Shown: positions 2,499 to 60,670 of the stretch, in pieces
How positions within the stretch are numbered: the first letter of the stretch is position 1
How the letters are laid out: each line of letters starts with the position of its first letter
DNA from: Bacteroidales bacterium UBA3724
Lineage (GTDB): Bacteria; Bacteroidota; Bacteroidia; Bacteroidales; P3
Length of the DNA: 64,000 nucleotides
Assembly (NCBI GenBank): GCA_002371315.1
Contig: DFHL01000013.1
Span: 5,742-69,741 of the forward strand
Direction of reading: 5' to 3'
Program-made: the position numbers and the translations under genes
Notes under the pieces: model-generated
What the model saw: the letters and a program-made list of their open reading frames with translations, nothing else
Told to the model about the DNA's origin: nothing
Databases searched by the model: none

Positions 2499-3311
2499 AT
2501 GACGGAAGAACAGAAATCCCTGCAATGGCTCAGCAACATCCTGGACACACTGAGAAAAGAGTGTCCGTGGGACAGCGTCCAGACCATCAAGAGTTTGCGT
2601 TACCTTACAATAGAGGAGGTCTACGAGCTGTCGGAAGCCATCACTGCAGGCAACTACGACGAGATGCGCAAGGAACTGGGCGACCTGTTTATGCACCTTG
2701 TCTTCTATGCAAAGATAGCCGACGACGAGGGACGCTTTGGCCTCAGCGACGTTCTGGACGGCATCTGCCAAAAACTCACAGCACGCCATCCGCACATCGC
2801 CCTGCCTGACCGTGAAGGCAATATCCAGGCCGCCACACAGAGCTCCACACCAAAATGGGAACAGGTGAAGATGAAAGAAGGCCGCCGCTCGGCACTGGAA
2901 GGCGTGCCGGAGTCTTTGCCCTCACTTATCAAGGCCATCCGCATACAGGAAAAAGCCGCAGGACTGGGCTTTGAATTCCCGAACAGAGAGATGGCAAAAG
3001 CCAAAGTGGACGAAGAATACAGCGAATTCATCGAGGCTCTCGACAAATACCACGCCAACGGCAAGACAGCACAAAAAGATGCAGAGGAAGAACTTGGCGA
3101 CCTGATATTCGCAATCATCAAATGGGCCCGATTCGAGAATCTCAACGCCGACGATGCCCTTGCCCGCACCAACCTGAAATTCACTCAACGCTTCAAATAT
3201 GTAGAGTCGAAAGCTCACGCCAGCGGACGCAATATGCAGGACCTCAATCTTGACGAGATGGAGACCTACTGGAACGAAGCCAAAACAGTTTTACGCAAAC
3301 AACAAGAATAA
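2499..3311 (+). CDS. mazG: nucleoside triphosphate pyrophosphohydrolase MazG
   Basis: 270 aa with two MazG repeats (EEVYELSEAI...ELGDLFMHL and EEYSEFIEAL...ELGDLIFAI). Confidence 0.9.
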   Translation: MTEEQKSLQWLSNILDTLRKECPWDSVQTIKSLRYLTIEEVYELSEAITAGNYDEMRKELGDLFMHLVFYAKIADDEGRFGLSDVLDGICQKLTARHPHIALPDREGNIQAATQSSTPKWEQVKMKEGRRSALEGVPESLPSLIKAIRIQEKAAGLGFEFPNREMAKAKVDEEYSEFIEALDKYHANGKTAQKDAEEELGDLIFAIIKWARFENLNADDALARTNLKFTQRFKYVESKAHASGRNMQDLNLDEMETYWNEAKTVLRKQQE

Positions 3312-3508
3312 TCTACAATAATATGAAACGCAACTACATAGCCCCAAGTCTAACCGTCGTAACCTTTAAGGTGGAAAAAGGTTTTGAGAATAGCAGCACG
3401 GTCAGTTCGCCCCTCGAGTTCGATTTCTTCACTTTCGACCCCAACGAGGAGCAGAACCAAGCTGCCAGCTATAACGAAAGCCACTGGAACTGGTAGGGAA
3501 TCCCGTTC

Positions 3509-4549
3509 CTACTGCGCACCAAGAATCGTCACCGCAGCGGCACGACCGTCGTTGACGGCATCGTTTATCGACATTGGCCGCTTGCAGGAGCCACACACAA
3601 ACAAGCCCTCCTGCCCTGTCAGGCAGTCGCCCAAATGCGGGTCGGCCGACTGCGCGAAACCATATTCGCCACAGATATTGCAGGCCTTGGCAAGACAGCG
3701 CGTACCCTCCGAGGCTTCCATTCCAACCATCAGCACCAACAAATCGGCAGTCATCTTGAGCGGCAGACCCATCAGGGTGTCTTCGGCCTTGATTTGCACA
3801 CGGCCGTCGAAAGTGCCCGAAGCCTCTGAAATGCGGCCACGCACATAGCGCACACCATACTCCTGTTGCGACTGACGGTAAAGCTCCTCGAAATGCTGAC
3901 CCCACATACGCAAATCCATATAGAATATATAAGCCTCCGTATCAGGCATCATCCGCTTTAGTTCTATAGCCTGCTTGACGGCGGTCACGCAGCATACCTT
4001 TGAGCAATAATGGTTGCCCGACTTTTCGTCGCGCGAGCCCACACACTGCAAAAACACGACGCGCTTCGGCTTCTCGCCCAGCGAGTTGACAACCTGATTG
4101 TAGCGTATCATCTTCTCCATCTCCAACGACGTCACCACACCGCCATATATGCCATAGCCAAGCTCCTCCTTGCGGCGGGCATCGAACGGAGTGTAGCCTG
4201 TGGCCAGCAGGACACCGTCGCTATAGTAGGTTGAACCCTTGCCGTCCACGACCTTCCAGCCCTGACCCTCGCGTCGCAAATCTACAATCTCGGTGTCGGA
4301 ATGGAGAGTAATATTGTTGTTCAGAAGCTTCTTGTTCATCTGTTCCACGATGTCGCTCGCAGCGGCAAAATTAGGGAAAAGGAACGCTTTGTCGGCCACG
4401 TTTTTCAGCGGAGAGGACGATTTTTCAAAAAGCAACACTTTCAGTCCCTGCTTGGCAAGCACCGAAGCAGCCTCGATGCCCGCCGGGCCTGCGCCTATGA
4501 TGGATATTGATTTCATTGCTGATATATTGGTTATACTATTAATACTCAT
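3509..4549 (-). CDS. HdrA-like FAD/Fe-S flavoprotein (short form)
   Basis: Dinucleotide fold IIGAGPAGIEAA and the HdrA signature CVGSRDEKSGNHYCSKVCC. I chose the start at 4549 because it forms an ATGA overlap with the upstream stop. The ORF track extends to 4567. Confidence 0.8.
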   Translation of the reverse strand: MSINSITNISAMKSISIIGAGPAGIEAASVLAKQGLKVLLFEKSSSPLKNVADKAFLFPNFAAASDIVEQMNKKLLNNNITLHSDTEIVDLRREGQGWKVVDGKGSTYYSDGVLLATGYTPFDARRKEELGYGIYGGVVTSLEMEKMIRYNQVVNSLGEKPKRVVFLQCVGSRDEKSGNHYCSKVCCVTAVKQAIELKRMMPDTEAYIFYMDLRMWGQHFEELYRQSQQEYGVRYVRGRISEASGTFDGRVQIKAEDTLMGLPLKMTADLLVLMVGMEASEGTRCLAKACNICGEYGFAQSADPHLGDCLTGQEGLFVCGSCKRPMSINDAVNDGRAAAVTILGAQ

Positions 4550-5613
4550 TGTTCTACCTTGAGGCATTCGGGCTGTGCCGGCCTGGGCAGCAGACGGCCG
4601 CTGACGCCTTTGTATTTCTCATCGGGATTAAAGGCTATGCCTATCTTGTTGAACAGCGGCTCGCTCTGCACCTGGTGCAGTTGGAATCCCAGCTTCCAGG
4701 GGTCGTAGCCCAACAGCAGGCCTGTCAGCTCCTCGTATGTCAACACCGGAATGCCATAACCCTGCCTGTCGTATGTCTTGTGCTCCATTTCGGCAATCGT
4801 GTATTGCCATTTGTCCAGGAACATATTGCATCCAGGGCAGTTGGTCAGTATAAAGTCCGGCTCATAAGGCTCCATCGACTGGAATTTTTTCTTTGTATTG
4901 GCAATCGAATAGCCACGATTTTCCTGCACAAGATACTGGCGGAATCCGAAACCGCAACAATGGCGGCGTTCGGGATAGTCGATTACCTCTCCGCCCCAGG
5001 CCTCGATCATTCCAGCCAGGACGTAAGGAAACTCCGCCTTGCCGATGCCGCGTTCGGGAAATATCTTGGCATAGTGGCATCCTATATGCTCCACCACGCG
5101 CAACGGTTTGCCCGTAAAGCGGTTCACGAGCTGATACTTCATCTTGGGTTTCAGGTCGAAACGGAACTTGTATATCACATCCGAAGGGTGGGCGATGTTT
5201 TTCGGGATCTTGAATTCACGTTTAGTCGCTTCCCAAAGGAACTGTCGTGCCTGGTCAAGCAGGGCAGGATCATTCTCCCATTTCTCAATCACTTCCGAGA
5301 AAACGCCAAACGAAGTGACGCACGACGGCACATAGTTCTCGTATCCGCACTCTGTCATCAGCGAGAACAGGCGTGCCACGACGGTCATCGTCGTCTCGAA
5401 CGGCACCACATCGCTGTGGTAGCCGATGCCCGTACAGGTATGCTGATGAGGATTGTCGCATATATCCTTGCCAAGCTCGTCGCGCAGAATGCGCAGGAAA
5501 GCCGCTTCCGAGCCAGGGAAAAAAGTCTGGCGGATGCAGCTGCGCTCATAGAAGAAATGGTCGTCGGCAATCTCCTTCTGGTATTCGTTCCAAAAACGTT
5601 TTTCCATATTCAC
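4546..5613 (-). CDS. HdrB-like CCG-domain subunit
   Basis: 355 aa. C-terminal CCG motif (RRHCCGFG ... NCPGCNMF) as in heterodisulfide reductase subunit B / GlpC-type proteins. Confidence 0.78.
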   Translation of the reverse strand: MNMEKRFWNEYQKEIADDHFFYERSCIRQTFFPGSEAAFLRILRDELGKDICDNPHQHTCTGIGYHSDVVPFETTMTVVARLFSLMTECGYENYVPSCVTSFGVFSEVIEKWENDPALLDQARQFLWEATKREFKIPKNIAHPSDVIYKFRFDLKPKMKYQLVNRFTGKPLRVVEHIGCHYAKIFPERGIGKAEFPYVLAGMIEAWGGEVIDYPERRHCCGFGFRQYLVQENRGYSIANTKKKFQSMEPYEPDFILTNCPGCNMFLDKWQYTIAEMEHKTYDRQGYGIPVLTYEELTGLLLGYDPWKLGFQLHQVQSEPLFNKIGIAFNPDEKYKGVSGRLLPRPAQPECLKVEQ

Positions 5614-10432: not shown

Positions 10433-10718
10433 TTTGATTGTTTATTTAATTGTTTTGAATTTGATTTTTTTTGTTTTGCTTTTAACCCTAAAACGTATCG
10501 CGGAACCCAAAAACTACAAAATGATGAAAAAAAATTTTGAAAATATTTTCAGAAGGCTGATTTGCAGCACTAAACAGATGAAAAATTTTTTCTTCCGCCC
10601 TATGCGTCCGCGCCTTCTGGCCGCCTCGGGGCATCGCACCGCCGACGGCGACATCGCCGCCGAGCCACCTCTGCCATTTTGTCAGTCTTTGAAATCCTAT
10701 CCAAAATCCACCCATACT

Positions 10719-10855
10719 CCACTGGCGAAAAATTTGGTAAAAACAAGGTAGAACTTTGAGTGAACTTTGATAGGAAATTGGTATTGGGAATCAGGCGTTT
10801 AAAAATGCCGATTTTTGGCCGTTTTTGGCGGTTTCGAAATGTTTTTGAAACAAAA
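10719..10855 (+). repeat. dispersed intergenic element, copy 1 (11-bp-phased TTTGGTA-type heptamers)
   Basis: ccACTGGCGaaaaaTTTGGTAaaaacaaGGTAgaacTTTGAGTgaacTTTGATAggaaaTTGGTAttgggaatcag...atttttggccgtttttggcgg. Aligns with the copies at 25.1, 42.9, 51.3 and 60.0 kb. Confidence 0.8.
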
Positions 10856-10885
10856 AAAACTGACAAAATGTCAGTTAATTTTTTT
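10852..10885. terminator. bidirectional hairpin terminator
   Basis: AAAAAAAA-CTGACA-aaa-TGTCAG-TTAATTTTTTT. T-runs follow the hairpin on both strands. It lies downstream of the LptF/G-family gene. Confidence 0.5.
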
Positions 10886-21952: not shown

Positions 21953-22054
21953 TTGTTTTGCGGATTGAAATCCATTCATTATCTGCGACAAACCATAGAT
22001 TCGTCACAATACATTGCTAATCAGACACACCCTGGCATCCTACAGCGGCAGCCA

Positions 22055-22132
22055 GTTAAGGTCAAGGTTATGGTTAAAGTTAAGGTTAAAGTTAAGGTTA
22101 AAGTTAAGGTTAAAGTTAAGGTTAAAGTTAAA
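22055..22132. repeat. 12-bp tandem repeat (GTTAAGGTTAAA)n
   Basis: Four perfect units at 22079-22126, two degenerate units upstream and a half unit downstream. It abuts the stop codon of the ThrC-like gene. Confidence 0.95.
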
Positions 22133-22133
22133 C

Positions 22134-23348
22134 TCAACCCTCCACCAACTCCTTGAACCACTGGGCGCGGTCGCAGCCCTCGCCGGTGTTGAGCAGCACA
22201 ACGTCGCCGTTCTTGATCTCGCCTTTGTCCACAGCCTGGAAAAATCCGGCATAGCACACCATCGAGGCAGGACCCATCAGCACTCCGCGGCTGGCCTTCA
22301 TCTCCTTGCCGTAGCGGGGCAGCTCGGCCTCCTTGACACGGATAAAGGTGCCGCCCGAACGCTTAACCAGCGGAGCCACAAGCGGATAGTTGCCCGGATT
22401 GGCAGCCGTCAGGATGCCGATGCGGGTCTTGATGTCCTTCTTGGCCTCGTACTGCTGCTCCCATCCTGCGGGGAATCCGGCAGCCGTGGCCTTCTCCCAG
22501 GCCGTCACCATCGGGTCGCACTCGTCCTGCTGCACCAGCAGCATTCGCGGCAGCTCATATTTCTTGTCGCCATCCATAGCCTGCAGGTCGCGGAAGCCCT
22601 TCTCGAAAGCCAGCGGCGACGTGCCGCCAGCCACAGCCTGCATATAGACCGTGGGCAGCTGGCCCATCTGGCGCAGGCACTCGAACACCACCAGACGCTT
22701 CGACTCGATGCGCAGCGGATCGGTGTTGCCGCCGCTGATCAGCACATTGTTGGTCTTGTGATAGTTGGCAGCCTCTTCCTTAGCAGCGCCGTAGCCGCCG
22801 GCCGAGACGACCACAGGCTGACCCACCTTGCGGATGGCCTCGACCGTGGCGGGGTCGATGCAGTTGGGCGCAAACTCGGTGAAGCGGATGCCTGCCTTGG
22901 CGCTGTAGGTGGCAAAAGCCACGCCGGCGTTGCCCGTCGACGCCAGACAGTACTCCTTGACGCCCTGCTCCTTCAGCACCGTGGCGGCCAGCGCCGCGCT
23001 GATGTCCTTGAACGAGCCGCTGCCGCGGTTCAGGTCGTTGCGATAGACAAACACCTTGCAGTCAACGCCTTTACCCTTTGCATAGGCCTCCAGGTTGTCC
23101 CACCTTTCGATGGGAATCAGGCCCTCGCCAAAGCTGACCACGTTGCTGCGGTCGGCGATGGGCAGCATATCGAAGTAATAGTCTTGGTACGAGTCGGTTG
23201 CAGGCTCCTCGGCAGGGGCGTGCAGCGGCTCCAGGTATTCCACCTCGGCATATCCGCTGCCGCAGTCGCACTTCTGGTCCTGGCGAAACCAAGTGGCAAA
23301 GTCGGCGATGACCTTGCCACATTTCTTGCATCTGAGTTGGTATTTCAT
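22134..23348 (-). CDS. threonine-synthase-fold PLP enzyme (candidate cysteate synthase, CapA-like)
   Basis: About 404 aa. N-terminal Cys4 ribbon (CKKCGK...CDCGSG) and PLP-lysine context GSGSFKDISA. Start chosen at MKYQLRC so that the 18-bp hairpin at 23373-23430 is intergenic. Confidence 0.75.
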   Translation of the reverse strand: MKYQLRCKKCGKVIADFATWFRQDQKCDCGSGYAEVEYLEPLHAPAEEPATDSYQDYYFDMLPIADRSNVVSFGEGLIPIERWDNLEAYAKGKGVDCKVFVYRNDLNRGSGSFKDISAALAATVLKEQGVKEYCLASTGNAGVAFATYSAKAGIRFTEFAPNCIDPATVEAIRKVGQPVVVSAGGYGAAKEEAANYHKTNNVLISGGNTDPLRIESKRLVVFECLRQMGQLPTVYMQAVAGGTSPLAFEKGFRDLQAMDGDKKYELPRMLLVQQDECDPMVTAWEKATAAGFPAGWEQQYEAKKDIKTRIGILTAANPGNYPLVAPLVKRSGGTFIRVKEAELPRYGKEMKASRGVLMGPASMVCYAGFFQAVDKGEIKNGDVVLLNTGEGCDRAQWFKELVEG

Positions 23349-24706: not shown

Positions 24707-24865
24707 ATTGTTTAAATTTTATTTAGATTTCAGCGCAATATTATCATATTCAGCCACTAACGCCTTGACGCGCGTGGCACTTCAAACCGCAAAAATACTA
24801 AAAAAACCTAAAACCGCAAGCCTTCGCCACCCGAAATCTTCGCATTCGCACTATTTTTAACATTT

Positions 24866-25049
24866 CCCCCACCCCGCCCCAACGCCATCCCCACATCACC
24901 CCCACACCGCCCCCACACCCATCCAACCTCCGAATCCAATCCCCCGGCACCAACCATCCATCCACCCGTCACCCCATACCCGACCCGTCGACACCCAAGA
25001 CCCAACCAGCCGTCGCCCGAACCCCGTCCGCCCAACACCCCTACCACAG
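24866..25049. other. extreme C-rich (minus strand G-rich) tract, G-quadruplex/i-motif prone
   Basis: By my count, 18 runs of three or more C in about 185 nt, with almost no T or G on the plus strand. Confidence 0.85.
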
Positions 25050-25086
25050 AAAACTCCCTCTCCGAAAGGGCCGCTCTGAACTATCT

Positions 25087-25285
25087 TCTGAAAAAGTTAT
25101 TAACAAATTCTGACCATCTTCTACTGGCGTAAAATTTGGTAAGAATTTGGTAAGAACTTGGGTAGAATTTGGTAAGAAGATGGTACCTGGAAAACAGACA
25201 GTTGCAAAAGGCCGTTTTTTGCCCGTTTTTGCCCCCTTCGGAAGGCAAGTTATCAACAATTTTCGGAGCCCTTTTCCAGAAAACT
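25087..25285 (+). repeat. dispersed intergenic element, copy 2
   Basis: ctACTGGCGtaaaaTTTGGTAagaaTTTGGTAagaacTTGGGTAgaaTTTGGTAagaagaTGGTAcctggaaaacag...gccgttttttgcccgtttttgcc. Bracketed by AGTTATTAACAAATT (25095) and AGTTATCAACAATTT (25248). Confidence 0.85.
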
Positions 25286-25375
25286 CCGCCCCGCCCCCGG
25301 CACGCCGCCGCCCCTCCCCCGACACCCCCGCTACGCAGGCGCCCCGCCTGCGAAAAAACAGACACCCCCACCCGC
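25286..25375. other. second C-rich tract
   Basis: ccgccccgcccccggcacgccgccgcccctcccccgacaccccc...gacacccccacccgc, lying on the other side of element copy 2. Confidence 0.75.
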
Positions 25376-25412: not shown

Positions 25413-25503
25413 AATTTGAAGATTTTTCAGACAAGATTTGAAGATTTATTTTCATACTTTTGAAGATTTTTCTTTGCAGAATTGAAGATTTTCTGTATTT
25501 TTG
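25413..25503 (+). repeat. 4 x 22-bp direct-repeat array (TTGAAGATTT cores)
   Basis: Cores start at 25416, 25438, 25460 and 25482, exactly 22 bp apart. The last unit overlaps the promoter boxes of the AAA-ATPase gene. Confidence 0.85.
25473..25503 (+). promoter_or_regulatory. Bacteroidetes-type promoter for the AAA-ATPase gene
   Basis: TTTG (25473-25476), 19-nt spacer, TATTTTTG (25496-25503). The ATG is at 25525. Confidence 0.5.
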
Positions 25504-25524
25504 CAGCCAGAAAAACGATACAAT

Positions 25525-26712
25525 ATGATAAGACGAATTCATAATAACGACTTGATTTCCCGCATTAAGGAGCCTCGCCGCACTATCCAAGTGGTTGCCG
25601 GCCCTCGGCAAGTTGGCAAGACAACTATGGTAAAACAGGTTTTGGAAGAGCTGGCAATCCCTTCCTTGTATTGCAATGCCGATGCAGTAAAGCCTGACGA
25701 CAAGGGTTGGATAGCATCGCGGTGGGAAGAGGCCCGCTCGAGGATGCGCTTCGACGGCATAGGAGAATTTATTCTGGCTATAGACGAGATTCACAAAATC
25801 AACGACTGGAGCGAGCAAGTGAAAAAGGAATGGGACGCCGACAGCTTTAACAATATAAATATCAAGGTTATATTGCTCGGTTCGTCAAGGCTTCTGCTGA
25901 AAAAGGGATTGACCGAATCGCTTGCCGGACGGTTTGAGATTTTTCCAATGGGCCATTGGACATTCAAAGAGATGAATGAGGCTTTTGGCTTGAATATCAA
26001 CCAATACGTATATTTTGGCGGATACCCGGGCTCGGCCGCATACATAGCCAACGAGAGTCGCTGGCGCAAGTATATGCGTGATTCAATCATAGCACCTGCC
26101 ATCGAAAAGGATGTGCTGCAAACGACCTTTATCTACAAGCCCGCTTTGATGCATCAGCTGTTTCATCTTGGATGCAGCTATTCAGGCGAACTGCTGGCAT
26201 ACAACAAGATGCTTGGAATGCTGCAGGATGCCGGCAACGCGACCACATTGGCTGTCTATCTGAAGACGCTCGGCGAGAGCAAACTTCTGACTGGACTGCA
26301 GAAATACGCCCTCGACAGCGCACGCAAATACCGCTCAATCCCAAAACTCCAGGTTTACAACAATGCATTGCTTTCGGCAATGACAGACGGTATGACCTAC
26401 GAGAAGGCGTACACCAATCCCCAACTGTGGGGCAGATGGGTTGAATCGGCCGTCGGATGCTTCCTTCTCGACAAAGCCGAAGAGCTTGAATACCAGGTGT
26501 ATTATTGGCGAGAGAACAATATGGAGGTCGATTTCGTCATAGTAAGAGGCCAGAGTGTTTTGGCTATTGAAGTCAAAAGCGGCAAAATACAGATGAACAG
26601 CGGATTGGCGATATTCCGCGAACGCTTCAAGCCGCGCCACTCGCTGGTCGTCGGAGGCGATTCGATGCCCCTTGAATCGTTTTTCAACGGCGACATAGAG
26701 AACCTGCTGTAA
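25525..26712 (+). CDS. AAA-family ATPase with C-terminal PD-(D/E)XK-like (DUF4143-type) domain
   Basis: Walker A GPRQVGKTT, Walker B-like LAIDEIH, C-terminal NMEVDFVIV...LAIEVKSGK nuclease-fold motif. First ATG is at 25525 (the track uses TTG at 25501). Confidence 0.8.
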   Translation: MIRRIHNNDLISRIKEPRRTIQVVAGPRQVGKTTMVKQVLEELAIPSLYCNADAVKPDDKGWIASRWEEARSRMRFDGIGEFILAIDEIHKINDWSEQVKKEWDADSFNNINIKVILLGSSRLLLKKGLTESLAGRFEIFPMGHWTFKEMNEAFGLNINQYVYFGGYPGSAAYIANESRWRKYMRDSIIAPAIEKDVLQTTFIYKPALMHQLFHLGCSYSGELLAYNKMLGMLQDAGNATTLAVYLKTLGESKLLTGLQKYALDSARKYRSIPKLQVYNNALLSAMTDGMTYEKAYTNPQLWGRWVESAVGCFLLDKAEELEYQVYYWRENNMEVDFVIVRGQSVLAIEVKSGKIQMNSGLAIFRERFKPRHSLVVGGDSMPLESFFNGDIENLL

Positions 26713-26732
26713 CAAAAACAAATTCAACAATA

Positions 26733-26800
26733 CAACTTTTTCGGGGTTTTGACGTAATATACTCGTATGGAAGCGAAGAACATTATTGAGACAAAGAACA
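26733..26800 (+). repeat. direct repeat A (copy of the smpB upstream region + first 11 codons)
   Basis: caactttttcggggttttgacgtaat...ATGGAAGCGAAGAACATTATTGAGACAAAGAAC aligns with 27795-27862. Confidence 0.85.
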
Positions 26801-27777
26801 GTAATCTTTTGTTTAATGCCATATCGGGCATTATAAACGAGGCGCGTGGCAAAGCCTACCGTGCTGTCAATTTCGTTATGGTGCAGGCTTACTGGGAAAT
26901 AGGCCGACTAATCACCGATGACGAACTGAATGGACAGCGCGCGGCCTACGGCAAGGAAGTGCTGAAACATCTTGCCGCACGACTGACCAAGGAATACGGC
27001 AAAGGCTTTGACGAAAGAGAACTGCGCAAGATGTGCCAGTTTTACAAATACTTCCAAATTCGGGACACACTGCGTCCCGAATTGAGCTGGTCGCATTACC
27101 GCCGGCTGTTGAGCGTTGAAAACGAGAAAGCTCGGGTGTGGTATATGAACGAGGCCGCCGATGCCACGTGGTCAACTCGCCAGCTCGACCGGCAGATATC
27201 CACGTTGTATTACGAGCGTCTGTTGGCCAGCCGCGACAAGTCGCCCGTAATAGAAGAGGCCAAGGAGAAGATGTCCCAACTGCAGCCGCAGGATGTCTTT
27301 CACGACCCTTATGTGCTTGAATTTCTAAATCTGAAAGACTATCCTGCCTTGCACGAGAGCAATGTGGAAAAGGCACTGATAGACAATCTTCAAAGCTTCC
27401 TGCTGGAGCTGGGGACTGGCTTCTGTTTTGTGGCTCGGCAAAAGAGGATGCGCTATGGCGACGACGATTTCTATATAGACCTTGTCTTCTATCACAGTCG
27501 ACTGAAGTGCCACGTGCTGATTGACCTCAAGATGGGTAAGCTTACACACGCCGATGTTGGGCAGATGGATAGCTATATCCGTATGTTCGACGACCTGTAC
27601 AAGGCCGAGGACGACAATCCGACAATTGGTCTAATACTGTGTTCGGAAAAGAACGAGGCCGTGGCCCGCTATTCGGTACTTGCCGACGGGAAACAGATGT
27701 TTGCCGCAAAATATATGACTTATCTTCCTACAGAAGAGGAGCTGACAAGAGAGGTTGAGCGCGTGCTTAAAAATTAA
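26767..27777 (+). CDS. PD-(D/E)XK nuclease family protein (YhcG/DUF1016-type)
   Basis: 336 aa. N-terminal helical part (VNFVMVQAYWEIGRLI). C-terminal nuclease core DFYIDLVFYH...HVLIDLKMGKL...GQMDSY. Confidence 0.8.
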   Translation: MEAKNIIETKNSNLLFNAISGIINEARGKAYRAVNFVMVQAYWEIGRLITDDELNGQRAAYGKEVLKHLAARLTKEYGKGFDERELRKMCQFYKYFQIRDTLRPELSWSHYRRLLSVENEKARVWYMNEAADATWSTRQLDRQISTLYYERLLASRDKSPVIEEAKEKMSQLQPQDVFHDPYVLEFLNLKDYPALHESNVEKALIDNLQSFLLELGTGFCFVARQKRMRYGDDDFYIDLVFYHSRLKCHVLIDLKMGKLTHADVGQMDSYIRMFDDLYKAEDDNPTIGLILCSEKNEAVARYSVLADGKQMFAAKYMTYLPTEEELTREVERVLKN

Positions 27778-27794
27778 AATTCGGAGTGGAAGCA

Positions 27795-27862
27795 CAACAT
27801 TTTTGCGGTTTTGACGTAATTGTAGTTGTATGGAAGCAAAGAATATCATCGAAATAAAGAAC
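27795..27862 (+). repeat. direct repeat B (native smpB upstream region + first 11 codons)
   Basis: caacatttttgcggttttgacgtaat...ATGGAAGCAAAGAATATCATCGAAATAAAGAAC. Confidence 0.85.
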
Positions 27863-28282: not shown

Positions 28283-28380
28283 AGGTCGGGTTTTAAGGTT
28301 TAGGAGTTAAGGTTGGTCAGAATCAAAATATTAATTCCGCATCTGAAGTTAAGGTTAAAGTTTAAGTTAAGGTTTTCACT

Positions 28381-42354: not shown

Positions 42355-42355
42355 G

Positions 42356-42428
42356 TGACCACGCTGGGGCTCGAACCCAGGACCCCATCCTTAAAAGGGA
42401 TGTGCTCTACCTGCTGAGCTACGTAGTC
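42356..42428 (-). tRNA. tRNA-Lys (anticodon UUU)
   Basis: The reverse complement GACTACGTAGCTCAGCAGGTAGAGCACATCCCTTTTAAGGATGGGGTCCTGGGTTCGAGCCCCAGCGTGGTCA folds as a 73-nt cloverleaf with anticodon loop CTTTTAA. Confidence 0.93.
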
Positions 42429-42449
42429 TGCGAAAACGACATTTACCAG

Positions 42450-42522
42450 TGACCACGCTGGGGCTCGAACCCAGGACCCCATCCTTAAAAGGGATGTGCT
42501 CTACCTGCTGAGCTACGTAGTC
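42450..42522 (-). tRNA. tRNA-Lys (anticodon UUU), identical second copy
   Basis: Same 73-nt sequence as 42356-42428, separated from it by a 21-nt spacer. Confidence 0.93.
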
Positions 42523-42860: not shown

Positions 42861-43055
42861 GCTGGAAACACGCCCCTAAAATTGTTAATAACTTCATTCA
42901 AAAACGGCCAAAAAAGAGCCAAAAATGCCGTTTTGCAACTGCCTGTTTTCCAGGCACCATCTTCTTACCAAATTCTACCCAAGTTCTTATCAAATTCTAC
43001 CCATATTTTACCACAGTAGAAGATGGTCAGAAATTGTTAATAACTTTTCAAGAAT
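42861..43055 (-). repeat. dispersed intergenic element, copy 3 (inverted relative to copy 2)
   Basis: The reverse complement matches copy 2 with 9 mismatches over the ~125-nt core by hand alignment. Bracketed by AAATTGTTAATAACTT at 42878 and 43031. Confidence 0.85.
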
Positions 43056-43711: not shown

Positions 43712-44338
43712 ATGAACACACACGCCGCGCTCTTCCCTACCGCCTATTTCCCGTCAATTCCGCTGATGGCCGCTATGGCACAGGCCGAAGTCATCACGAT
43801 TGAAACCAACGAAAGTTTCCCCAAACAGACCCACCGCAACCGCTGCGTCATCCCCACCGCTAACGGCCCGATGACGCTTTCGGTGCCCGTCCTTCGCCCC
43901 AACGGCACGCACACGCGCACCTGCGACATCGGCATCAGCTATGCCGAAAAATGGAACGTCGTCCACTGGCGAGCCATCGAGTCGGCCTACAACTCGTCGC
44001 CTTTCTTCCTCTACTACCGCGACGAAATCGAGCGCATATTAACCTCAAGGCACAACTCGCTGCTGCAGCTCAACGAGGAAATACTGCGGTTCCTTTTGAA
44101 AAAAATCAGGCTCGAGCGCCCAATTGAATACACAACCTCATACCTCAAACCCGGCGAAATCGAGCAGGACTTCCGCGACCGATATTCGTACAAGCATCCC
44201 GAAAACAATCCGGCCTGTCCGCAATACAGCCAGGTGTTCGGCGACAGGTACCCCTTCGACTGCAATGTGAGCATCCTCGACACACTTTTCAATTTAGGCC
44301 CTGAAACAAAGGACTATCTGTCCACTATCAGCATCTAA
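43712..44338 (+). CDS. WbqC-like family protein
   Basis: LFPTAYFPSIPLMAAM...ESFPKQTHRNRCVI...GPMTLSVPV...EKWNVVHWRAIESAYNSSPFF is typical of the WbqC family. Start chosen at ATG 43712. Confidence 0.7.
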   Translation: MNTHAALFPTAYFPSIPLMAAMAQAEVITIETNESFPKQTHRNRCVIPTANGPMTLSVPVLRPNGTHTRTCDIGISYAEKWNVVHWRAIESAYNSSPFFLYYRDEIERILTSRHNSLLQLNEEILRFLLKKIRLERPIEYTTSYLKPGEIEQDFRDRYSYKHPENNPACPQYSQVFGDRYPFDCNVSILDTLFNLGPETKDYLSTISI

Positions 44339-44402
44339 ACATCATAGTCTATGATGTTTAGGACCAAAATCGCCCATTTTGGACACCAAAACCAACAAAA
44401 AG

Positions 44403-44439
44403 AGGCTGTAAATATCATAGACTATGGTATTTACAGCCT
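44403..44439 (-). terminator. rho-independent terminator of mnmG
   Basis: 12-bp stem AGGCTGTAAATA/TATTTACAGCCT. On the minus strand it is followed by CTCTTTTTG. Confidence 0.6.
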
Positions 44440-51001: not shown

Positions 51002-51253
51002 ATTTGATATAGAATAACGTCATACATTCTATTTTATTGTAGGCAAGCCAGCTATTAATTACATATAGATTCCACTCTAAAAATCTCGCGACGACCCCCT
51101 TCGAAATGTTAAAAACATACATCATTTTAACATTTTATTTTAACATTTATATCTTACTGATTGTCAATGGTTAATTTTGCAACCGCTTGGAGAAATTCCA
51201 CACATCGCCCGATTTTGACCTGTATAAAACCCTGACGCAAGGGCTATTAAAGC

Positions 51254-51392
51254 CCACTGGCGTAGGGTTTGGAAAGGCTTTGGATGGGCTTTGGGTGAAC
51301 TTTGGTAGGTATTTGGTACCTGCAAAACAGCGAGTTGCCACATCGAAAAATTGGCCAAAAACCGCATCTGAAATGTTAAAATTTAACATTTC
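51254..51392 (+). repeat. dispersed intergenic element, copy 4
   Basis: ccACTGGCGtagggTTTGGAAaggcTTTGGATgggcTTTGGGTgaacTTTGGTAggtaTTTGGTAcctgcaaaacag. The T-run/GGCC module is inverted here (aaaaattggccaaaaacc). Confidence 0.8.
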
Positions 51393-54457: not shown

Positions 54458-54754
54458 GCACACTTTGCACAAATTCTCAATATTGACAATTCCACCGATA
54501 TTCCAGGCTTCAACGTATATCCAAATCCAACAGACAACAGCATTTCTGTCAACGTATCACATACTGATACTTATTCCTATGAATTACTCGATGTTAATGG
54601 ACGAAGCGTCTTAAAAGGAGAATTTAAAGGGACCATTACAACCATAAATATATCTTCACTTCCCGCAGGACACTATCTATTTCTTCTGAAAACAACAAAT
54701 GCTACATCATTTCGCACTATCGTGAAAAAACACATTAAGATTTATAATGAATGA
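54458..54754 (+). pseudogene. orphan T9SS C-terminal sorting domain (remnant of a truncated cargo gene)
   Basis: Open frame with no ATG. It translates to ...FNVYPNPTDNSISVNVSHTDTYSYELLDVNGRSVLKGEFKGTITTINISSLPAGHYLFLLKTTNATSFRTIVKKH, a Por/T9SS type-A CTD. An in-frame stop lies at 54455-54457 and AT-rich non-coding DNA lies upstream. Confidence 0.7.
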
Positions 54755-54755
54755 A

Positions 54756-54788
54756 GAAAGAAGAGTCTCAATTTGAAACTCTTCTTTC
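54756..54788. terminator. hairpin terminator between convergent units
   Basis: GAAAGAAGAGT-N11-ACTCTTCTTTC. Confidence 0.55.
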
Positions 54789-54811
54789 TCAAATCAATAT
54801 TTCTATTGTAG

Positions 54812-59656: not shown

Positions 59657-59949
59657 TTTTTTAAGATTTAATATGCAAAGTTACGACAAATAGTCCATCC
59701 GTCAGCCGGCGGCATACGGTTTTTTTCCACAGTTTACACTTAACTGCGTAAACGACAAATGGTTGAAGTTTTATAATTTGTTCCGCGCCCCGCCCTCGAC
59801 GGCCGATTTCCCCGATGCGGGACCCGTATGTTCCCGCTGTCGGCAAGCGAAAGAGGATTATTTTCCGAAACAACCATTTTTCCACCGTCCGAAGGGGGCA
59901 TTGTAAGGGCAAAAATCGGAGCAGAGTTTTCTGAAAAACCGGTCAAAGT

Positions 59950-60120
59950 CCACTGGGGTGATTTTTGGTAAAAATATGGTAAAAGTTTGGGTGAACTTTG
60001 GTAGGTATTTGGTACTTGGAAATCAGTGGGTTGTATTTTTGGAAAAATGGCACTTTTTTTGGCCTTTTTCGACACTTTTTTTTGGCATTTTCCGTTACTG
60101 ATTTTGGCACTTTTGGAAAC
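59950..60120 (+). repeat. dispersed intergenic element, copy 5
   Basis: ccACTGGGGtgattTTTGGTAaaaataTGGTAaaagTTTGGGTgaacTTTGGTAggtaTTTGGTActtggaaatcag. Shares 30 identical nt with copy 4. Extended T-run/GGC tail. Confidence 0.8.
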
Positions 60121-60670
60121 GCGAGTTTTCGTTTTTGTTTCCTGTTTTTTCGGGTTGGAATCCGGCACGGTTCGACCCCGGCGCAAAGTGCCACCGCTCA
60201 GGTCGGTGTGGAGTTATAAACAGGGGTCTGTTTATTTGTTGATGAAAATGATTTCATAAAAGTGTTGATAAAATAACGGTGTTGATAACTGTTGAAAGAT
60301 GTTAGGAAAATGGCGACTTTCCATTGTTTTTCACCAGCTGTTTCAACCGAAAGGAAAAATTGAACAAAACGGTGTTCGAACCGCTTTCAACAGTGTGTTG
60401 ATAAAGTTGCAAGGCTTTGAGGTATGAAGATTTATCTGGTGAAAAGTGATGGAAACGCTGTTGAAAGAAAAGTGTGAAAAGTGAGATTTTTCGAGGGTTT
60501 TGAACATTTCAACAGTCCTAAAAAAAAGAAAAGAAAAAAAATTATAATTCTTAATGATTTTATTTTTTTCCCGATTCGCCGAAAAATCGTATTTTTGCAT
60601 TGTCTATCGGCTTTGCCGAAAGCGGATATCAAGTTCAAAATAAGGATTCACGAAAATAAAATTCCTAAAT

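Follow-up and report, generated by a model that had tools for sequence, protein, structure and literature searches.

What is a short non-coding sequence that recurs in the spacers between unrelated genes, and what keeps it there? The question is raised by a 64,000-nucleotide stretch of the genome of Bacteroidales bacterium UBA3724 (GenBank assembly GCA_002371315.1, contig DFHL01000013.1, positions 5,742 to 69,741; hereafter the window), in which an initial annotation, made from the letters alone, had described five dispersed copies of an intergenic module built from TTTGGTA-like heptamers at an 11-bp period. Good descriptions of interspersed repeats exist for proteobacteria and a few pathogens, but hardly any for the dominant Bacteroidales of the rumen, which are uncultured. 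We find that the five copies belong to a multi-genome family, and on balance, at little better than even confidence, we read this family as an ancient, non-autonomous mosaic repeat, akin to MITEs (miniature inverted-repeat transposable elements) and BIMEs (bacterial interspersed mosaic elements), whose phased units bind one protein cooperatively.

The five copies are a true repeat family, far beyond chance. Inspection of the window sequence recovers each of them close to where the initial annotation had placed it, as a non-coding module between genes, and a degenerate 27-nt pattern laid over units 3-5 of the array matches five times in the window, at exactly these copies, with no match expected from shuffled sequence. 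The query TTTGGTA-N4-TTTGGTA, with up to 3 mismatches, matches 24 times in the window against 4.1 expected. An nhmmer profile run over the whole window returns the five copies and no sixth; it also matches the reverse strand of copies 2 and 3, so the element holds an internal inverted repeat. With the bracket repeats that flank them the window copies span ~165-290 bp, and across the family, which is short, non-coding, multi-copy and dispersed, the range is 165-330 bp. Several details noticed earlier also stand: copies 2 and 3 are closely alike (86% over 158 nt), copies 4 and 5 share 30 identical nt, the module of T runs and GGCC is inverted in the copy at 51 kb, and the array strand is poor in C (5.4%). 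A coding function, against which the initial annotation had argued, was likewise rejected on the grounds of the 11-bp period, of stops at intervals of three units along the array strand and of open frames that occur only on the complementary strand. Open reading frames (ORFs) listed over the copies, on that stop-free complementary strand, are judged to be artefacts.

Among the matches listed from one scan of species-representative genome contigs, the family occurs in at least seven ruminant-gut Bacteroidales genomes (six labelled Bacteroidales or Bacteroidetes, and one metagenome-assembled genome, MAG, of the Paludibacteraceae), and there is one chance match besides. The hosts of the listed genomes include reindeer, yak, sheep, goat and cattle, among others. 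At least 79 copies lie in seven other genomes, beside the 5 copies in the 64 kb of the window; RUG13410 has at least 21 exact pattern matches on 1.9 Mb of contigs. The copy set used below comes from 85 pattern matches in the window and the other genomes, made up of 84 true copies and the chance match L046. The core pattern has no match in viral contigs and none in plasmids.

The copies share a fixed architecture. Each element opens with a bracket repeat. Two 11-bp units in inverted orientation come next, then a centre that varies from 4 to 7 bp, five units in direct orientation, the junction TGGAAAWCAG..GTT, a tail of ~90 bp and the bracket again. Beyond the parts first described there are thus an inverted left arm, bracket repeats and a tail of phased A/T tracts, and the motif (C/T)ACTGG(C/G)G, which had been taken for the left end, is nothing of the kind: CYACTGGSG is the centre of an imperfect inverted repeat, with two reverse-complement units to its left (for example, TTCTTACCAAATTCTAC). 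The unit logo nTTTG(G/A)TAA(G/A)A (nTTTGRTAARA) is conserved at 9 of its 11 positions, and this conservation holds too in units 1-2 and in the left arm, regions that lie outside the search pattern. The register of 11 bp is strictly kept in an alignment of 77 copies. Exactly five direct units are present in 74 of the 77, the other three have extra whole units, and the only length changes noticed inside the array are insertions of 11 nt or a multiple of 11 nt.

The tail is poorly conserved in sequence and carries tracts of four or more A or T at a density of 5.1 per 90 nt, where AT-matched background has 2.0. These tracts most often lie 10 bp apart, and 52% of successive spacings fall at 9-12 bp, compared with 18% in the background; in c-type tails A runs replace the T runs and the phasing is kept. 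Phased A tracts are a textbook cause of intrinsic DNA curvature. So far as sequence can tell, the element probably binds protein and bends DNA.

A short bracket motif stands on both sides of every copy, and the type of motif defines the subfamily (Table 1). In the b, d and f types, which make up four of the five window copies, the brackets are direct or palindromic, not inverted. Four of the five bracket motif types have no occurrence beyond 350 bp of a core in 648 kb, from which we take the motifs to be components of the element itself and not free-standing motifs of the genome. As a separate observation, CTGACAAAATGTCAG lies between an A run and a T run in the window (10858-10876), where it forms a perfect bidirectional terminator-like palindrome, and the same palindrome is found beside elements in L004, L040, L048 and L076, which represent several species.

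Does the element act as DNA or as RNA? We think that it acts as double-stranded DNA. The initial annotation had argued against a folded RNA on the array strand, and RNAalifold indeed finds 0 consensus pairs over the 77 copies. The best 14-bp arms are 72% Watson-Crick, and transversion mismatches (164) outnumber transitions. Mismatches of the G·T kind (64) are as frequent in the arms as A·C (71), so neither strand has the wobble signature of a selected RNA helix. The Rfam search proposed at the outset matched no family: at the gathering threshold only the two tRNA-Lys genes pass in the window, and at a permissive threshold over copy 2 the best match is P14, with 18.7 bits against a cut-off of 45.

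These results bear directly on the idea that the copies are small RNA genes, for instance sponge RNAs whose UUUGGUA repeats titrate an RNA-binding protein, or that they act in cis as leader or terminator RNAs. Sponge RNAs such as CsrB and CrcZ typically contain a single-stranded motif in many repeats. In some copies the tail region looks like a weak terminator, modules of A run, 3-5-bp GC stem, T-rich loop and T run in many tails of the a and b types are similar to intrinsic terminators, and a terminator scan flags copies 1 and 3. The junction TGGAAAWCAG..GTT can form a short hairpin, in some copies only. An RNA of either kind is nevertheless very improbable in our view, given the missing Rfam match, consensus structure and strand-specific wobble, the inversion of the c-type tail module, by which the terminator-like hairpin is lost, the absent orientation bias with respect to genes, and the near-absence of promoters described below.

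A related alternative is a foldback element that acts as a hairpin or cruciform, its left arm pairing, as single-stranded DNA or RNA, with either unit 1 or units 4-5, and that is recognised by an HUH/RAYT-like or integron-integrase-like enzyme or processed by RNases as a transcript, as in Correia and ERIC elements. In copy 2 the left arm (25107..25124) is complementary to unit 1 and more closely so to units 4-5. Over the 77 copies, standard pairs make up 87% of the stem of left arm and units 4-5 and 78.5% of that of left arm and unit 1. Double changes number 52 in the former (21.6 in shuffles) and 58 in the latter (39.6 in shuffles), and both stems beat every slid control. The nhmmer match of the element to its own reverse strand points the same way, as do the folds of copies 3 and 4 and of the minus strand of copy 2, which are better than those of shuffles (z ~ -3). 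However, single-copy folds differ between the window copies (z -0.4 to -3.1 on the + strand), and the folds of copies 1, 2 and 5 on that strand do not surpass those of shuffles. In the long stem, that of left arm and units 4-5, the search pattern partly fixes the right-hand columns. Moreover, the two stems exclude each other and yet score alike, which is expected if the units of one copy share subfamily-specific spacer bases (AAAC versus AGAA). Because of this exclusivity and the pattern confound we keep the cruciform or hairpin as a minor rival, not as a finding; with RNAalifold giving nothing and the arm mismatches as described, we consider it improbable.

If the units bind protein, an obvious candidate role is the control of a neighbouring gene. 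The initial annotation had noted that the 11-bp period gives the geometry used by iteron-binding and by winged-helix proteins of the OmpR/PhoB type, and that four of the five copies lie upstream of a co-oriented gene, at distances that it gave correctly. Part of this stands: the phased array fits protein sites, for which binding is a prediction, direct repeats of a 7-bp core and a 4-bp spacer suit that class of regulator, and the distance to a co-oriented gene downstream is 136-551 bp for four of the five copies in the window. Co-orientation is not a general property, however. Of the 65 copies with two called neighbours (counts that come from crude ORF calling), 34 have a co-oriented and 31 an opposed downstream gene, and from this split we take the four of five in the window to be a small-sample effect. 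All copies are intergenic without orientation bias, in spacers that are divergent in 22 cases, co-directional in 28 and convergent in 15 (23%). The want of an orientation rule, together with the 15 copies in convergent spacers, makes a promoter-proximal operator of the OmpR/PhoB type unlikely. In addition, the window neighbours are functionally unrelated housekeeping genes (LptF/G, an aminotransferase, SmpB, a WbqC-like protein, SDR, RpiB and NadA), orthologous genes appear to keep their promoters with or without the element, and in sister species the same spacer may hold the element in either orientation. We accordingly give scant credence to an operator through which a response regulator of the winged-helix OmpR/PhoB type, or an iteron-binding regulator, controls the co-oriented downstream gene.

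The array also brings no canonical promoter with it. The -7 box of Bacteroidetes has the consensus TAnnTTTG, which occurs once in the 77 copies, compared with 281 occurrences of TA-n3-TTTG and TA-n4-TTTG together; a full -33/-7 promoter is found once. It is from the near-absence of TAnnTTTG that we draw this conclusion, and the same counts speak against small RNA genes. Outside the element, TAnnTTTG boxes recognised by eye suggest that the tRNA-Lys and SDR genes have kept their own promoters. A sigma-70 scan was not informative for Bacteroidetes. An IHF site was tried and rejected, as the E. coli IHF consensus fits just 24 of the 77 copies. The sigma-54-like sequence TGGCAC-N5-TTGC, found once near elements and once far from them, is no general property of the family. 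Separately, a sigma-54-like TGGCACGNTTTTTG(C/T/A) lies ~100-130 bp past the tail of the e-type copies L007, L017 and L075, with the exact TGGCAC-N5-TTGC only in L075.

We compared orthologous loci and propose that the copies are now inherited vertically. Among the other genomes, orientation and place are kept in 23 of 23 orthologous locus pairs. Copy 2 has orthologous copies in L035 (alignment ~87% identical) and L078 (77%), and copy 3 is orthologous to L030, a locus of the Paludibacteraceae MAG that is 96% identical to the window. Paralogs within a genome have a mean identity of 69% and a maximum of 88%, and orthologous copies between species reach 93-96%. As paralogs are never more than 88% identical, the family must be old and without a recent burst. 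In 15 pairs of orthologs identity peaks over the core (0.78-0.88), above the flanking spacer (0.61-0.72), with 0.74-0.85 in the mostly coding flanks, and the core-adjacent columns outside the search pattern reach 0.85 and 0.82. With core identity above that of the surrounding spacer, purifying selection acts on the array, or the array at the least changes far more slowly than the DNA around it. A weak replication-strand bias (47 to 27 toward the G-rich strand, uncorrected for the non-independence of orthologs) was also seen, and nothing is drawn from it.

Other traits resemble those of an inserted element: the copies are all intergenic and have no orientation bias, their presence and orientation vary between orthologous spacers, and the neighbouring genes are unrelated. 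For instance, a b-type copy lies inside a 450-bp spacer in L018, L062 and L067, and the same two genes are only 3 bp apart in the window. The spacer of copy 3 is without an element in L067. As another example, the spacer before the SDR gene, upstream of it, contains a c-type copy in the window, in + orientation; L017 and L011 have a copy in - orientation there, and the relatives L107, L108 and L110 (SDR protein identity 81-88%) have none. The flanking modules at the copy 4 site are wholly different from those in L017 and L011, beyond mere orientation.

Changes of orientation might suggest an invertible promoter segment, in which inverted repeats surround a switchable 250-300 bp, as is common in Bacteroidales. 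Switching would explain the absent orientation bias, copy 4 is inverted relative to L017 and L011, and the a1 and c subfamilies have inverted repeats ~270-310 bp apart. We reject this explanation, to which we attach only a trace of probability, because orientation is kept in every one of the 23 orthologous pairs. It also fits poorly with the lack of a Bacteroidetes promoter motif inside the element, with the 15 of 65 copies between convergent genes, with the entirely different flanking modules at the copy 4 site, and with the direct brackets of most subfamilies.

Based on these data we favour the ancient mosaic repeat, and propose the following course of events. Long ago, a non-autonomous element of the MITE or BIME kind would have spread through the spacers between genes. 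Its seven phased units would form a cooperative binding platform for one sequence-specific protein, which may be the recombinase or transposase that mobilised the family or else a nucleoid protein. The tail of phased A/T tracts would be intrinsically bent DNA and would let ~150 bp, all of it in helical phase, wrap into one complex. Today the copies would pass on vertically, with purifying selection keeping the array. Transposition in the past, and the enzyme for it, are presumed. The initial annotation had reckoned with the end of a known insertion sequence (IS) or MITE, marked by terminal inverted repeats and target-site duplications, and half of this is seen: subfamily a1 has terminal inverted repeats of ~23 bp, but no target-site duplication was seen beside the a1 termini, no autonomous IS with the same ends occurs in the 648 kb around the 84 copies, and no named family was found.

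A number of observations weigh against a formerly mobile repeat. No transposase or recombinase gene adjoins any copy examined, and no copy in 79 loci and the window has coding DNA between its arms. Four attempts to define exact ends or a target duplication by means of orthologous empty spacers all met spacers too diverged for alignment with filled ones. The ceiling of 88% identity between paralogs means no sign of recent movement, and the direct or palindromic brackets of most subfamilies are atypical of MITEs of the DDE type. Conservation in units 3-5 is partly a selection effect, since the copies were gathered by a pattern that fixes 18 bases there, and binding and curvature are read from the letters only. 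Finally, the strong conservation of the array and its stable orthologous positions fit a never-mobile, host-encoded site equally well.

Such a site, architectural or regulatory, would be coated over its seven units and bent tail by a nucleoid-associated or partition-like protein, and would exist at tens to hundreds of places on the chromosome, for nucleoid organisation, supercoil management or the insulation of transcription units. The better conservation of the array than of flanking spacer between orthologs suits it, as do the fixed unit number and register, the stability of position and orientation in all 23 orthologous pairs, the absence of young copies, the phased tracts of the tail, and the match of five 11-bp units to the geometry of R1 parC. 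We still hold it to be unlikely, for orthologous spacers vary in presence, subfamily and orientation, the subfamilies have private bracket or terminal repeats as transposable families do, and placement is indifferent to the type of neighbouring gene; sites that never moved also need another route into many unrelated spacers. A more specific proposal, which we regard as distinctly doubtful, is that the copies are host-maintained, chromosome-wide nucleoprotein wrapping sites of a parC-like kind, with five plus two inverted units and bent DNA, served by a dedicated DNA-binding protein. If true, this would be a new nucleoid-organising or plasmid- or phage-interference system specific to this Bacteroidales clade, and the subfamily brackets would be secondary operator-like sites.

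The comparison with parC can be made in more specific terms. In R1 parC, two sets of five 11-bp iterons lie in ~160 bp of strongly curved DNA and bind about one ParR dimer per iteron, cooperatively (PMC2241845). Five head-to-tail 11-bp iterons per set are common to both, with curvature and binding of the present element as predictions. Unlike parC, which is single-copy, has two direct sets around its own promoter and lies next to parM and parR, the element has one set of five plus two inverted units and tens of chromosomal copies. A parC-type plasmid centromere was therefore rejected: no par genes lie near the copies, the neighbours are housekeeping genes, and there are five copies in 64 kb. 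A looser three-unit pattern matched 16 loci in viral contigs and was also set aside. The closest of these, L094 and L097, have five TTTGGTAAGAC units near genes for ParA and a ribbon-helix-helix protein. In L097, a phage-plasmid-like viral contig (IMGVR_UViG_3300018494_001407), five perfect units at 2700-2760 sit between a lysis cassette and the pair of ParA and ribbon-helix-helix genes (genes at 2900-5260). The AGGAG ribosome-binding sites and a TTGACA-17-TATAAT promoter of L097 indicate a host outside the Bacteroidetes, and the likeness of the L094 and L097 units to the element is probably a coincidence. The ~1.2 kb between the L097 units and parA is poor in ORFs, and a structured RNA is possible there. 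A search of metagenomes for three perfect units gave four unrelated GC-rich loci.

Among interspersed repeats, the family behaves most like BIME-1/RIP, Correia and BrickBuilt elements and appears to share sequence or defining features with none of them. It is an uncatalogued family with an unusual mix of traits: a phased iteron array of fixed number, a tail of phased A tracts and subfamily-specific bracket repeats. BIME-1 (RIP-RIB) and REP/REPIN elements, from enterobacteria and pseudomonads, resemble it as high-copy intergenic mosaics that have no gene inside, are inherited vertically and are long-lived; in BIME-1, as in the element if its predicted binding is right, palindromic units bracket an internal protein-binding motif. 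The proteins bound by BIMEs include IHF and gyrase. BIMEs are described as binding sites (PMC2817692), and REPIN families as long persistent (10.1101/2022.05.22.493013; PMC3337134). A repetitive extragenic palindrome (REP) is described as an imperfect palindrome of 20-40 bp with a GTAG or CGTC tag, found as singlets or inverted doublets (PMC3733652). REPs are GC-rich palindromes tied to a RAYT gene, whereas the present element is an AT-rich array of 11-bp units with an A-tract tail, and its brackets are AT-rich palindromes. Membership of REP/REPIN was rejected, as the conserved part, an array of 11-bp units 77 bp long, has arms just 72% complementary and no REP palindrome. No RAYT gene was seen in the window or in the loci examined.

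Correia (CREE) elements and the ERIC/IRU elements of enterobacteria are non-autonomous, intergenic and ~100-160 bp long, occur in tens to hundreds of copies, have an inverted-repeat character and affect the transcription of their neighbours. To our knowledge they have no cognate transposase. The Correia elements of Neisseria have 26-bp terminal inverted repeats, a TA duplication, promoters and hairpin transcripts cut by RNase III; for the present element, in contrast, no target duplication, promoter motif or conserved hairpin was found. A further relative in behaviour is the BrickBuilt MITE of Porphyromonas gingivalis, whose number of bricks varies, as we read the term minisatellite. BrickBuilt consists of 23-nt bricks (a minisatellite) with small inverted-repeat ends, and has 19 copies and bidirectional promoter activity (PMC4596501). 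Like the present element it has a Bacteroidales host, is always intergenic, and places a leader and a tail around head-to-tail short repeats (PMC4596501). Compared by description, the two differ in that the present units are of 11 bp, are fixed at five plus two inverted ones and carry no promoter motif.

The ends of IS607-family insertion sequences offer a further parallel, in architecture only, and like R1 parC they document that a geometry of this sort is in use. At one end of IS1535, a member of this family, four direct repeats of 9 bp keep helical phase at 20-60 bp from the terminus, and the other end has two (PMC6188088). IS607-family elements lack terminal inverted repeats and leave no target duplication behind (PMC6188088), and the winged-helix domain of their transposase coats ~70 bp as a filament (PMC6188088; PMC4058570). 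Both systems have phased short direct repeats with fewer, inverted ones at the other side, in our case five versus two 11-bp units. This asymmetry, with the missing duplication, makes a derivative of fused ends, left and right, of the IS607 type attractive, and by analogy the element may have had such an origin. Unlike IS607 elements, the copies are linked neither to tnpB nor to a serine transposase gene, near none of them was a tnpA seen, and subfamily a1 carries long inverted termini.

Across species the array is conserved about as well as the adjoining, mostly coding DNA, which offers a handle on a new DNA-binding protein or recombinase, and the family is a test case for whether selfish repeats become host chromosome-architecture sites. 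The element is constrained and absent from catalogues; with no binding protein or transposase found, we rate its interest as moderate. There is also a practical side. Three short-read contigs with the same RpiB (L082, L083 and L084, from Logan) end 250-340 bp upstream of rpiB, that is, at copy 5, and thus the repeat breaks short-read assemblies. Contigs with an exactly matching RpiB protein either have the same structure or are broken at the repeat. Since the copies also create spurious ORFs on the stop-free strand, annotators of rumen MAGs should mask them. The features of the window copies and the subfamily brackets are collected in Table 1.

Table 1. Parts of the five window copies, and bracket or terminal repeats by subfamily (positions in the window).
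Feature	Position	Strand	Details
Copy 1, d-type	10671..10874	+	bracket CTGCCATTTTGTCAG 10671-10685; inverted units ~10697-10727
Copy 1, right part		+	five direct units 10733-10787; tail to bracket/terminator palindrome CTGACAAAATGTCAG 10860-10874
Copy 2, b-type, focal copy	25047..25287	+	outer direct repeat CAGAAAACTCC at 25047-25057 and 25277-25287
Copy 2, left bracket	25095..25106	+	AGTTATTAACAA; core palindrome GTTA-T-TAAC
Copy 2, left arm	25107..25124	+	ATTCTGACCATCTTCTAC; reverse complement of ~1.5 units
Copy 2, centre	25125..25134	+	variable tetranucleotide TGGC, then GTAAAA; holds ACTGGCG
Copy 2, array of five direct 11-bp units	25135..25189	+	TTTGGTAAGAA, TTTGGTAAGAA, CTTGGGTAGAA, TTTGGTAAGAA, GATGGTACCTG
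Copy 2, conserved junction	25182..25204	+	GGTACCTGGAAAACAGACAGTTG; family consensus TGGAAAWCAG..GTT
Copy 2, tail	25205..25247	+	G/C clusters between T runs ~10 bp apart (phased A/T tracts)
Copy 2, right bracket	25248..25259	+	AGTTATCAACAA
Copy 3, b-type	42882..43045	-	brackets TTGTTAATAACT at 42882-42893 and 43034-43045; five units 42951-43005
Copy 4, c-type, left side	51104..51392	+	AAATGTTAAAA at 51104; TTTTAACATTT at 51125 and 51138
Copy 4, right side		+	five units 51268-51322; tail with A runs, not T runs; palindrome AAATGTTAAAATTTAACATTT 51371-51391
Copy 5, f-type	59924..60130	+	GAGTTTTC at 59924-59931 and 60123-60130; five units 59964-60018; T-tract tail
Bracket, subfamily b (copies 2 and 3)			AGTTATYAACAA
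Bracket, subfamily d (copy 1)			CTGACAAAATGTCAG
Bracket, subfamily c (copy 4)			AAATGTTAAAA / TTTTAACATTT
Bracket, subfamily f (copy 5)			GAGTTTTC
Termini, subfamily a1			inverted, ~23 bp, ATCCGACTTTTTGATAAATT; matched GCCAAA/TTGGC variant in L006 and L031

Several other features lie near the copies. On the left of copy 2, between the aminotransferase gene and the copy, ~360 bp (24715-25080) are extremely C-rich and G-poor (ccccacaccgccccc...). To its right, three to four 22-bp tandem repeats (TTTGAAGATTT..., 25415-25491) stand just upstream of a gene for an AAA_14/DUF4143 ATPase. This gene and that of a YhcG/DUF1016 PDDEXK nuclease (25501-27820) are absent from the orthologous loci L035 and L078, in which the repeat element is directly upstream of smpB. 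The nuclease gene has 27-nt direct repeats, 89% identical, on either side (26732-26758 and 27794-27820), and the stretch of ATPase and nuclease genes is probably a 2.3-kb insertion.

At 42355-42428 and 42449-42522 there is a tandem pair of identical tRNA-Lys(TTT) genes, 94 bp from start to start, with a TAnnTTTG-type promoter box directly upstream of the pair that is conserved in L067. At 44336-44433 there are two copies of a 25-nt palindrome, TAAACATCATAGTCTATGATGTTTA, 48 nt apart, and at 54744-54800 an inverted repeat with 28-nt arms, in which the terminator scan counts a 17-pair stem. A 12-bp tandem repeat, AGTTAAGGTTAA, is present ~7 times at 22054-22137, with a related shorter copy 6 kb away at 28341-28376; in another genome a similar AACTTTAACCTTGACC array adjoins an element (L036, ~170-215). 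Finally, long tandem arrays of an 8-bp unit (GCTTTCCG / CGGAAAGC) lie ~150-250 bp from elements in L004, L010 and L040, which come from two species.

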